NCBI GenBank assembly: GCA_023231475.1
Contig: JALJEE010002582.1
Span: 1-64,000, forward strand
DNA from: Seison nebaliae
Lineage: Eukaryota
Direction: 5' to 3'
Length of the DNA stretch: 64,000 bases
The stretch's first letter is position 1. Each line of letters starts with the position of its first letter. The notes beneath the pieces were generated by a model. It made no database searches and was not told the DNA's origin. It saw nothing but the letters and a program-made list of their open reading frames with translations. The position numbers and the translations under genes are program-made. Shown one piece after another: positions 16,906 through 58,859 of the stretch.

Positions 16906-18391
16906 ATGGAGATGTCATTAAATAAAGAAGAAAATAATGGAACAGATGAAGACGAGGAAGAACATTTGAAAGAGATCGAATCTCAATGTAATTTCGCCCA
17001 ATTATATTTACTGAGAAATGAGAAGTTGGTTGAGAAGTTATTGTTCCAAATCGAATTATTGAAGTGTAAATGGTTGATTGGGAAAGAGAAATGTAATTCG
17101 TTAAAAGATGAGAAGATAATGGTGAAAGGACGTCAATTGTCGTTCGAAGAGAGTTTGTGGTATAGTGAGTCGAAGCATTGGCAATTGCGAGAGAATGTAT
17201 TGAAGAAAGATGAAGATAAAGATGAATGGGAACGACATCTTTCCACTAAAATCGATGGGAGAGATGAAATGAATATAAATAATTTATTTGGTGATACACT
17301 TCTCTTCCTCGACGAATTACATCATCGATATTGTGATAAGAATTATAATTCAGAACGATTATGGTCATATTACAAGAAGTTGAAGGAGCTGATTGGAGGG
17401 AATAGAGATTTGTATAAACTTTTCTCTTATGATAATCAGGAAAGAAATCTCTCTCGAATTGAGAATCGTATCTGTAATCTTTATGCAAATGCTATTGATG
17501 TTCAAGTGAATTCATTGAATCTTGTTATGGACACTTTGTTGAAAGTACAGAAAGAATTGGATGAAATGGTTCTCACACGAATCGATGAAGAATCTTATGA
17601 GAGAATGATGAATGATATTATGAACGATCCTGATTATAATAAAGAAGATATGAAAGAATTAATCACATTCGCTAAAGAAGAAGGAATTCATTCTCTTCTT
17701 CCTTATATATCCGATGATGACAATTCATCCAATCACCAATTAAAGAACAATAATAATAATAATAATAATAATGTGGGAGAAGATGAATTAATGGAGACGT
17801 TGAAAGATCATGAAAATTTTCTAGAAAGAGGAAATGAAAGGACGAAGGTGAAAGGAACGAATTTGAAGAAGTCGCATCTACAAAGTAAAAGTAAAATGGA
17901 AGTTCAATTTGAGCAACCGAAACCAGATTTGGAAGATATGCCAGTACGACCGGACGAACCTCGTTATTGTTCGTGTAATCAAGTGGTATTTGGACGTATG
18001 ATTGCATGTGATGATTCGAGAGTTGGTTCTTCTTAAAACTTCTTTTTTATTTAACATTTTATTCAACACATTCCAAATCTTCTTTTTTATATTCACCACT
18101 TTCATTCTATTACTCATCGAATGATTGATCTGAATCTCATTTTATTTTTATTTGTCTTTAAATGAAATTTCCCATTAAACATTTTCTTATCTCTCAAAGT
18201 GTTCGACCGAATGGTATCATTTAGGTTGCGTGGGATTAACGGCAGTACCGAAAGGTAAATGGGTATGTCCTTCATGTGAAACAAGGACGAATCCAAAGAG
18301 AAATCAACGAACGAAAAAAAACGTGAAAAACATTAATTCATCCACCACTCTCATACGACGTAGTAGACGATCGACGTCGCGAACTGCCTAA
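16906..18391 (+). CDS. ING-family (inhibitor of growth) PHD-finger protein, 2 exons (16906-18021, 18200-18391), about 435 aa
   Basis: Removing intron 18022-18199 (GTTGGT...CAAAG) restores [49 protein letters not shown], the ING-type C4HC3 PHD. Helical N-terminal region; (AAT)n poly-Asn tract at about 17747-17773. Confidence 0.88.
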
Positions 18392-19307
18392 TAGTCGGCT
18401 AAATTCGGACATTCTTCATGAGTGAAATTTCGGGGGAAGATGAAGCCGTTTTGTCTCGTTACCCATTCGTCATACAAATATTTACAAATCATATCAACAT
18501 GTTCAGCTGAAATATCCGTTTCGATTTCGAGCGCTAAATATCGATATATATGTTTCCATATTTCCCATTGGATTCTTGGATTAGCACCCGGTGGATCCGA
18601 TGTCAATAATTCACAGACAAATGTCATCGTTTCGATTATATTCTAAAAATATAAATTATTTTCTTTTCTTTATATATTAAATTCTTCATTATCTTAACTC
18701 TCTCTGTTTATCTCAACATTCTCTCTTTTCATCTCTCTCTCTTTTTCTCTGTAGAAAAATAATAAACTAAAACTATAATAAACTAACGGCAGCTAAAGAT
18801 GAACAAGCAATTGCTATAAATTTATTCCATTCGATAACACCACGAAAATCTCCCACTTTCATTAGAATATCAAACAAATCTTTTGGCAAGGATAAAGCAC
18901 GCCATTTCGATTCGATCATTGTCACATCCACATCTTTCATAAATCCTAACTGAAATTACATTTGAAATTTCATCAAATTTTCCAGAAAAAAAATTAACTT
19001 GACTATGAAGAACTTTCATTAAACCGAAAGTAAATGTCGTCTTATCTTTTTGATCACTTGTCGCATTAGCTATAAATTCTATACGATCTTTAACTGGTGG
19101 TTGTTTACCTTGAGCTAAACAACGGAAGTAACTGTCAGAGGAGGAAATTGAACTGTGAATTAAAGAATTTTATTGTAACGCTGCACTCCATTGTAACAAA
19201 TCGGTTGGTTGTGTACGTATTGCCGCTTTCGTAAATTGTTTGATAATATCAGGTAATTCAGGTGGTATACTAATTTGTTGTGAGCAGTAATAAGCAATAT
19301 CATCCAT
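18388..19307 (-). CDS. ROPN1L: Ropporin-1-like protein (RIIa/D-D domain, ciliary/flagellar), 4 exons, about 225 aa
   Basis: [45 protein letters not shown]..., with introns 19132-19179, 18950-18998 and 18643-18787 (all GTT..AG). C-terminal [11 protein letters not shown]...YRYLA...F...CPNL. Confidence 0.92.
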
Positions 19308-55848: not shown

Positions 55849-55906
55849 ATTCTGAGGGAAATTATTAGAACATTTTATTTATTTGGAATTTTATAACAAC
55901 ATTAAA

Positions 55907-58859
55907 TTAGAATACGGTACATTTATCGCCATGATTCATTAATGTTCCTTTGGAACAATTGAACACTTTCTGAAATTCCGGCATGTAGCTTAGGGCACCA
56001 TTCGTTCTTTTTATATTTCATTTAATTAAAATTCAAGAAATAAAGAAAGAACCTCGTATCTAATTGATATTTTCCTCTCAACGTTTGAGAATATTTATAA
56101 AAATCTAAAGCCGTAAAACAATTCGTCTAGAGAAGAAATAAGATTTCTAGTAATACGATTATTCAATAAAAAGACAACTTGAGCGAAAGCGAGAAAGAAC
56201 ACTTTATCATTATTATCAAATCCATTTAGTAACATATTCTTTTGATGTCTTGATTTCCACAACTGGTACGCCTATTTCGAAATGAATTATTATGTTTCTT
56301 TCTAGTAAAATAAAAAGAAGAGAAACTTCATAGGCGATAGCAACACCTCCAGTTTCTTTAATACTCTCTGGAGAGAATGTAGCACCGTGCATTTTTATCT
56401 AAATTATAAAAATTGTTTAAAAGAAAAAAATGAAAATTTTAAACATTTTTATCTTGTTTCTTCCCACTCACATAAACATTGAATGGTCCTATCGTTTTAT
56501 TTTGATAAGCGTTGATCACACATTGTTTCTTCCCCACATATCTTTGTCTAGTGAAATTTGTCCAATAGTTAGCATGATTTCCAAAATATCTACCCATTCG
56601 ATTATATTGACGTCCTTGTTTTATTAGAGAGAAAATATTTAAATATAAAAAAAGAAAAGCGAACCATATTCATCGATACCACCCAACATCCGATAAGCGA
56701 TAAGTGAACCCAAACTTCCATATTTTAAAGCTTGTGGCCAATCGGGATTAAAGAATTGTGGTTGAGCCATTCCGATTGAAACGAGTAATTCATTTCCAGT
56801 TGTATAATATTGTGCTTTTGCATCAAATGCATTTATTCCAGACCAGTCATCTTTTTCTATTACCCCAATAATTAGACGTCCAACAAATAGATTTCTTTCC
56901 CATTGATTCCATCGAATAATCGTTTCGAAATATGTATTATGCATATCGAACTAAAGAAGATAATAATAATAAAAGAAAAGAAAAAAATAAAACTCTAGAA
57001 TAATATTTGTCGATAGCCATATCTGATCCTAACATATTGTAATAACCGAGAGATAATTTCATATTATCTAATTTAGCGAAAGTGTATTGTTTTGTTTGGT
57101 CGTCCATCCAATCCCATTTTCTACTACGACGAAGTATCGCGTTCTTTAAATCGCTAACCATCTCCGAAATCTTTGGAATATATAAGGAATGAAAGATTAT
57201 GAGAGAATCATAAATTTCAAATTAAACATAATCCTTCGTAAATGGTTGAACAACTTTCGAAATGTACAATCGACTTAATGCGGTTGGCATATAAATTCTC
57301 ATCTGACGGAAACATTCATCAGCTGTCGAGAGAAAACTTCGAGTACGCGATTTCTCACTACGATATTGTCGGTACAAATCCATATATTTCACGCCCATTT
57401 TATCCACATATCGGAAGACAAATTGCCAAATTAAATAATTGTGCAATTGTCTTGAAAATGAATTATAAAGAAATGAGAAAAAAAACTGACTGAAATTTGA
57501 AACCTTTTCGAGTTATCATCGCCAAACTTCTTTGTTTTGTAAAATCCCATAACCTGACTCAAATAATCTTTCTCGGACAAGAGAATAACAGTGTCATTGT
57601 GGAAATTGGCTTCTTTGAATAATTCTTTAAAGAATGAATTAAAATCGAACTAATCAATTTATACAATTATATAAAATGTATAAATTATAATAAATATCAA
57701 AATTATTAATAACATCATCTCCTAATTGCGTTGTCAAATTTTTCAATGTAATCGACTTATCCTTTTGGTCACCTGGAACTGGTATTGTACCTCCAATCGT
57801 CTTAGAAATTCAGAAAATTATTAAAAATACAATATAAGAAATGTACTTTAGCAATTGCTGTCTCCATCAATAATATATCATCGACGACTTGATCTCTTGT
57901 AGCATTGTTAATGGGAACACCAGTATCTTGCTGCATCATAGTCACCACACGACCTATGAAATTGCGCAAAGCTGGGATACTCTAAATGATTAATTGATTT
58001 ATGATGAATATGGATTATGAGAGAAAAACAATTGAACTTTGTTTTTACTAGGTGAATATAAATAATCAGAGAAAGACATAGATATACCTCCATAATCAAT
58101 CTAAAAAAGTTTTAAAGAAATTTTTTGAAATTTTCATAAGAAATAACATCTAATAATTTCGATCGTTGATCTTGGGCAGATATGCGAGTACTGAAAGTAA
58201 ATAATACATCCGTCCAATAATCGATATGGAGCATTCGAACGACATTATCAAAATCATAATTGGCAAAATTCATGGTTGATAAAGCATACCAGCCGCCCAA
58301 TTTAGTAAAGATTTTTTGGATTTGAGGTATCGTATTTTTCGAATTACCAAAATCGTCAAGACATTTTCGATACATTAGCTAATGAGAATATCATATAATA
58401 GTGAAGAATTCGATACAATTCGAATGAAAATAATTAAAGAACTTTCAATTTTCTTTCATAGGATTCCGATGAATATCGATCGATAGAATCTTGTAATAAT
58501 CCTTCCATTTTTTGTCTTTCATTCGATCCGATCAAACTGAATTGATTATAATAATAAGAAGCACTTGGCACGTTGTGACTCTCTGTCCATTTCTGACAGG
58601 CATATTCATAAAAATTGTCACAAGGATATAATTTCTGATTCATATTGCTCAACAACTGATTTGCAGCGTTAGCACAACCTAAACTGCTACAAACTCCCAC
58701 GTTACTTCGAGCAACGTCAGTTGGTGAAGAATTGGAATTCGAAGACGATCCATTTCCTGCAGTTAACCATGCGACTAATGCAAGAATGGCAAATAGAATT
58801 GTTGTTGCAGTGAGAGCAGCTATCGTTTGCAATTTCCGTTTATCGTTAAGTTCTACCAT
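55907..58859 (-). CDS. Neprilysin/ECE (M13)-family type II membrane protein lacking the HExxH motif, 14 exons, about 757 aa
   Basis: N-terminal TM anchor, VCSSLGC, PCDNFYEYAC..W, YRKCLD, LGGW, HNYLIW, WMDDQTK...KL, QPQFF, FFLAFAQ..C, R.NG.L...PEF..VFNC, C-terminal CTVF. Thirteen introns of 43-64 nt (58379-58442, 58101-58147, 57982-58037, 57801-57846, 57650-57713, 57451-57503, 57171-57227, 56951-56993, 56615-56664, 56399-56444, 56272-56326, 56127-56178, 56007-56052) give one open frame. Confidence 0.9.

Follow-up and report, generated by a model that had tools for sequence, protein, structure and literature searches.

Animal introns usually begin GTA or GTG. We analysed a stretch of 64,000 nucleotides, hereafter the window (contig JALJEE010002582.1), which, judged by its sequence, is nuclear DNA of the seisonid rotifer Seison nebaliae (Rotifera). 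It holds 33 placed introns in nine transcription units, and 32 of the 33 begin GTT. Two exon queries match deposited S. nebaliae proteins (SNEBB_010637 and SNEBB_010635), and the best matches of an intronless Argonaute at 20010-23303 include rotifer proteins (Brachionus, 69% identity; Rotaria, 68%). An earlier annotation made from the letters only, here called the sequence-only reading, had placed 30 introns. All 30 donors were located at the positions it gave, and its counts of T at the third intron base (+3, 29/30), G at +5 (6/30) and G as the last exon base (-1, 5/30) were reproduced, with GTACAT at 57846 as the exception to GTT, while three introns had escaped it (16541, 36246 and 61550).

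Introns and their support

The introns, and one unused site referred to below, are as follows.

16541..16598 (-): thioesterase (4HBT) gene intron, donor GTTCCT; RNA rows, register, Pfam; additional to the earlier set
18022..18199 (+): ING-like gene, 178-nt intron that falls within the PHD finger, donor GTTGGT, acceptor AAG; RNA rows, frame
19179-19132 (-): ROPN1L-like gene intron, GTTACA; RNA rows
18998-18950 (-): ROPN1L-like gene intron, GTTAAT; RNA rows
18787-18643 (-): ROPN1L-like gene intron, GTTAGT; RNA rows
36246-36316 (+): intron of the gene for an 831-aa protein, GTTAGT; P0125 match; additional to the earlier set
36419-36482 (+): same gene, GTTAAT; P0125 match
38476-38518 (+): same gene, GTTCAT; P0125 match
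38742-38816 (+): same gene, GTTTCT; P0125 match
38908-38957 (+): same gene, GTTTCC; P0125 match
40702-40653 (-): G protein-coupled receptor (GPCR) gene intron, GTTAGT; frame, sole frame-keeping solution
40548-40498 (-): GPCR gene intron, GTTTGT; frame, one of three solutions, the one preserving the CHPL motif
50763..51640 (+): FAD synthase gene, five introns with donors at 50763 (GTTTTC), 51001 (GTTTCT), 51175 (GTTCAA), 51363 (GTTTGT) and 51579 (GTTTCC); P0124 match
53654-53703 (+): 5-oxoprolinase-like gene intron, GTTTTT; frame, sole solution
55748-55800 (+): 5-oxoprolinase-like gene intron, GTTATT; frame, four solutions, three with a GTT donor
56007..58442 (-): neprilysin-like (M13) gene, 13 introns (43-64 nt), 12 of them with GTT donors and one, at 57846, with GTACAT; RNA rows for 13/13, P0121 match
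56466..56471 (-): unused GTGAGT, in frame in a neprilysin exon; sequence; the assembled transcript uses 56444
61550..61619 (-): 70-nt intron, GTTCAC, on the strand opposite the first trypsin-like gene; RNA row, register; additional to the earlier set

The RNA evidence consists of alignment strings of assembled transcripts at the window's own coordinates, taken from a published table (Mauer et al. 2021, PMC8351084) in which Trinity transcripts, assembled with genome guidance, are aligned by GMAP. Among the matches listed, at least 17 transcript rows lie at window coordinates, on one contig, and they give at least 19 gaps, comprising 17 introns of the sequence-only reading and two new ones. By gene these are 13/13 in neprilysin, 3/3 in ROPN1L, one in ING and the two new introns; no rows for the FAD synthase, oxoprolinase, GPCR or 36230-39028 genes are among the matches listed. 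The sequence-only reading had proposed RNA junctions as its check, and within the window the pattern held: each of the 19 gaps has a single GT..AG register, and 18 of them start GTT.

Ten further introns are supported by deposited proteins, and gene models of this kind are weaker evidence than RNA. The 13-intron neprilysin model translates letter for letter to deposited P0121, and the five-intron FAD synthase model is an exact match to P0124. The 36230-39028 gene had been read as ATF6-like with four introns; those introns match P0125, but the exact match has five, and the 831-aa protein has no Pfam match at E 0.001. The remaining four introns are placed by frame only, two of them uniquely and two ambiguously. 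Three public runs that behaved as DNA, aligned over 39100-59000, gave no intron-type joints. The median intron length is 52 nt. Some tallies below (decoy GTs, exon-end background, U-tract, YTRAY, shifted register, -1G/+5G pairing) use a set of 32 introns.

Donor and acceptor sequences

In the 33 introns the base at +3 is T in 32 and A in one. Beyond it the donor is degenerate: +4 is T in 13, A in nine, C in nine and G in two, +5 is A in nine, T in nine, C in eight and G in seven, while +6 is T in 20/33 and never G (0/33). On the exon side -1 is A in 18, T in seven, G in six and C in two, and -2 is A in 23/33. The donors thus depart from the U2-type consensus AG/GURAGU, with a purine at +3 in 1/33, G at -1 in 6/33 and G at +5 in 7/33, and the U12-type donor RTATCCTT (consensus ATATCC) occurs in 0/33.

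Against a codon-position background the exon end is enriched in A at -2 (20/29 observed, 10.2 expected, p=0.0002) and at -1 (16/29, 10.2 expected, p=0.02), while G at -1 is at background (5/29, 4.7 expected). G at +5 stands above the 6% background (7/33, p=0.003), so the ordinary register survives weakly. Neither -1G nor +5G is present in 22/32 donors. U makes up 62% of positions +6 to +15 compared with 47% in mid-intron.

These profiles bear on whether a canonical U1 small nuclear RNA (snRNA) could simply pair one base out of register, reading A/GU as AG/GU and so demanding A at -1, G at +1 and U at +3. The core fits (-1A 18/32, +1G 32/32, +3U 31/32), and shifted U1 registers do exist at atypical human donors (PMC9311317). 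The downstream positions do not follow: +4A, +5A and +6G occur in 8, 9 and 0 of 32 compared with 10.2, 10.2 and 1.9 expected, -2C is found in only 2/32, the in-register +5G is enriched, and the mean number of pairs is 4.6 compared with 5.1 in register. We therefore set the shifted register aside as the main model, since it fits the A/GUU core and fails downstream, and regard it as unlikely.

At the other end of the intron, the YTRAY branch-point motif is found in 18/32 introns compared with a shuffle mean of 17.9, giving no branch-point signal above shuffles. AAG acceptors occur in 9/33 introns. They, and an intron interior with only 6% G, may mean that the 3' splice signal is likewise relaxed.

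Chance, controls and extent

The sequence-only reading had argued that AT richness would give A about as often as T at +3. This does not hold for introns that are 49% T, 33% A and 6% G, where chance favours T. As the introns are T-rich, that null was too generous to its own case. T follows 18/33 internal intron GTs, and with a null probability of 0.57, the harshest used, 32/33 still has p=2e-7, and the RNA-backed introns taken separately (18/19) have p=4e-4.

It could nevertheless be that no special machinery is involved, the donors having drifted in a T-biased compact genome, or that the contig is unrepresentative. The T content and the unused GTs within 30 nt of a donor, of which 33/59 also have +3T, lend this some support, as does the use of a single contig with 13 introns in one gene. 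Yet used donors differ from these unused GTs (Fisher p=2e-5), and all nine transcription units (9/9) agree, which together with the test above makes drift very improbable.

For an outside control, protein alignment was used to place introns in 79 Argonaute loci of animals not closely related to Seison, a placement that differs from the RNA-based one used here. Of 48 candidate calls (+3T in five), 25 were left out: three GC calls and 22 that were the sole call in their locus, most of these being transcripts with protein indels. The 23 control introns have +3T in 3/23 and -1G in 18/23, which differ from Seison at p=4e-11 and p=1e-5 respectively. Two of the 79 loci are clearly rotifer-like, and both are intronless transcripts.

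Individual sites point the same way. In neprilysin the used GTTTAA is preceded, at a distance of 27 nt, by the in-frame GTGAGT; use of the latter would give a 73-nt intron, but the assembled transcript skips it. At ten of the 59 unused GTs the fit to canonical U1 is closer than at the donor actually used. Canonical donor words are neither clearly depleted nor clearly enriched across 18 kb of coding sequence. Alternative GTT sites that would also yield introns of 40-80 nt number 20, so GUU plus length alone seems insufficient to define the site.

GMAP writes short gaps as deletions when strong standard splice scores are absent. Of the window's short gaps 15/16 are written in this way, as are 72/81 short gaps (40-99 nt) on other contigs among the matches listed (hand tally). 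This indirect comparison, in which the aligner's gap scoring is seen and the donors themselves are unread, suggests that the window is typical of the genome and speaks against an unrepresentative contig. We consider it very likely that the GTT pattern is genome-wide.

Taken together, the RNA-backed GTT donors, -1G at background, the weak +5G and the skipped in-frame GTGAGT support a changed donor code in S. nebaliae, as the sequence-only reading had held.

The U1 snRNA gene

A scan of the window with Rfam found two tRNAs and no snRNA. An invertebrate-type U1 from a bacterial genome bin (L028) was used as bait against four DNA runs. Each run (4/4) gave one U1 contig, of 1.6-2.2 kb, in which the first 62 nt aligned without gaps and with 11 differences and which continues into a recognisable stem-loop II; the contig therefore holds a U1 gene. 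Over these 62 positions, four canonical U1s show 10-15 differences from the bait.

The depth of the U1 contig is about half that of the window contigs (0.55, 0.45), which resembles the heterozygous fraction reported for S. nebaliae (79x compared with 132x). The 30 nt upstream of U1 contain 16/30 G+C, a value reached by fewer than 1% of the window's non-coding 30-mers, and the gene may derive from the host, a second strain or another organism. Five bacterial genome bins (L007, L012, L015, L028 and L036) carry animal-type U1 genes on small contigs, likely as contamination. U1 pattern scans gave 43 genome matches, and among the 13 scanned were five real U1 genes, all in bacterial bins; one viral match to the pattern was not U1.

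Donors with very little U1 complementarity raise the question of whether the U1 particle has been lost, as in Cyanidioschyzon merolae, leaving U5, U6 and intron length alone to pick the donors. Reports put the missing share of metazoan BUSCO genes at about 36%, and the U1 gene seen may be foreign. On the other hand all four runs contain this gene, its depth would equally suit heterozygous Seison contigs, and the Seison genome is intron-rich where that of C. merolae is not. We give loss of U1 hardly any credence.

How the donors may be read

At +3, A is nearly absent even though it makes up 33% of intron bases and a canonical in-register U1 should favour it, so something selects against A. The explanation that we favour, tentatively and at somewhat less than an even chance, is that a U1 snRNA recognises the near-invariant +3U by carrying A where U normally stands opposite +3, like the U1 of Entamoeba. 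There GUUUGU(U) donors have co-evolved with a U1 carrying ACAAAC (Roy and Bowser, 10.1101/2022.06.08.495308).

In such a code the donor would be reduced to a purine-rich exon end, GUU and a U-rich tract, on short GT-AG introns that the major spliceosome would remove by pairing sites across about 50 nt. The changed U1 5' arm would set the choice at +3. As only three to four pairs would be left, the affinity lost would be made up by contacts of U5 loop I with the last purines of the exon and by a protein of the TIA-1/Nam8 type bound to the U tract, while the check on +5G by U1 and U6 would be relaxed, not abolished. TIA-1/Nam8 recruit U1 at weak sites (PMC9311317), and U5 and U6 donor classes have been described (PMC11732430); we infer the helper roles of U5 and of the U-tract binder. 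The broader proposal, that a rewritten code governs thousands of introns, with a changed U1 arm fixing GUU, -1G and +5G largely dropped and GTRAGT ignored, seems to us possible but somewhat less likely than not.

Several points weigh against a changed U1. Yeasts, Giardia, Trichomonas, Thecamonas and Mamiellales combine atypical donors with a canonical U1 (10.1101/2022.06.08.495308), and the two U1 versions of Fritillaria share identical 5' ends, with modification and U2AF changed instead (PMC13326754). A changed U1 would pair with about 4/6 intronic positions on average, unlike the perfect match in Entamoeba, and the U-rich tract may reflect nothing more than the base composition of introns. 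The number of differences in the U1 alignment fits a canonical 5' arm or a one-base change alike, and the donors come from one contig, with 13/33 introns from one gene.

Only slightly less likely, in our view, is that the snRNAs are canonical and that proteins or modification choose +3U, through changed contacts of U1C, LUC7, PRP8 or SNRNP27, through a G·U wobble of U6 at this position or through altered m6A marks, with help from U5 pairing and from the definition of short introns. Lineages with atypical donors more often have a canonical U1, and the register of the U6 ACAGA box permits a +3U-G pair (both 10.1101/2022.06.08.495308); Fritillaria alters U2AF and m6A, not the U1 sequence (PMC13326754). 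The 22/32 donors with neither -1G nor +5G leave RNA pairing weak under any model, and the AAG acceptors suggest a wider relaxation at the protein level. What this account does not readily explain is the near-absence of +3A, which pairs with canonical U1, and a code led by U6 should have retained +5G, seen in 7/33.

The compensating change might also lie in U6, with A for G opposite +3 in the ACAGA box, and not in U1. U6 rather than U1 has been argued to fix the cleaved site (PMC11732430), and +3 lies opposite the G of ACAGA in the register described (10.1101/2022.06.08.495308). However, Entamoeba retains ACAGA (same source), and +5G, the main U6 pair, is weak here; we think a changed U6 improbable.

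Other features of the window

Intron density is very uneven, with the 13-intron neprilysin gene adjoining long intronless genes. The remaining features are as follows.

4904-4975 (+): tRNA gene, Rfam
9124-9197 (-): tRNA gene, Rfam
11853-15869: ABC transporter, long intronless gene
20010-23303: Argonaute, long intronless gene
59019-61070: CLP1_P protein, long intronless gene
61651-64000 (+): three tandem trypsin-like genes, intronless, named by eye

The receptor gene at 40498..40702 (-), called ETHR-like in the sequence-only reading, is a rhodopsin-family GPCR (Pfam 7tm_1), confirmed no further than that, and the FAD synthase gene carries a PAPS_reduct domain. The thioesterase gene has spliced and intron-retaining isoforms, both assembled; the retained form (16157-16642, -) has an open frame of 161 aa from another ATG, and the 58-nt intron, spliced or retained, would yield two N-termini. 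The ING-like and ROPN1L-like genes are convergent (17663-18642), their stop codons overlap at 18388-18391, and the ROPN1L transcript extends through the last exon and the intron of ING. The spliced transcript at 61550-61619 (-) may be antisense RNA or may represent an extended 5' UTR belonging to the CLP1_P gene.

Comparison with known systems

Altered rules for reading intron starts are so far known mainly from unicellular parasites. Entamoeba is the single +3U precedent that we found, and its U1 is changed accordingly (10.1101/2022.06.08.495308). It shares with Seison (+3T 32/33) a U in place of the +3 purine, GT-AG ends and AT-rich introns. Entamoeba, however, is intron-poor with a strict hexamer (88-90% GUUUGU) and +5G kept, whereas Seison is an intron-rich animal in which only GUU is fixed and +4 and +5 are degenerate (GTTTGT in 2/33 donors; +4T in 13, +5G in seven).

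Human U5-class donors, AG//GUNNN (Parker, Fica and Simpson 2025, PMC11732430), resemble those of Seison in weak +4 and +5 and in exon-end purines but are without a fixed +3U, while in Seison -1G is at background and A is commonest. The human register shifted by +1 (PMC9311317) shares the A/GUU core, without the downstream +5A and +6G in Seison. Fritillaria borealis is likewise an animal lineage with an altered splice-site code (PMC13326754), but there the terminal dinucleotides change (95% non-GT/AG), via U2AF paralogs and m6A, where Seison keeps GT-AG and alters +3.

Our literature search, whose coverage excluded most subscription papers, turned up no account of donors dominated by GTT, whether in Seison, in rotifers or in any other animal. 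The main text of the Seison genome paper lacks the strings 'spliceosom' and 'snRNA' and has one unrelated 'splice', and the available text of PMC10125929, PMC11347168 and PMC3033335 holds no Seison donor data.

Significance

Few features of animal gene expression are as conserved as the U1 5' arm and the GURAG donor. If true, the proposed change would be the first rewiring of a donor code at the snRNA level in an intron-rich metazoan. Standard splice models fit the Seison genome badly, and the published alignment lists most short introns as deletions. In the coevolution model donor codes shift once intron numbers collapse (10.1101/2022.06.08.495308), and an animal that is rich in introns, has a fixed +3U and shows hardly any -1G or +5G signal puts that model to a direct test. 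The donors of Seison would also separate the roles of U1, U5 and U6 in the choice of the cut site.

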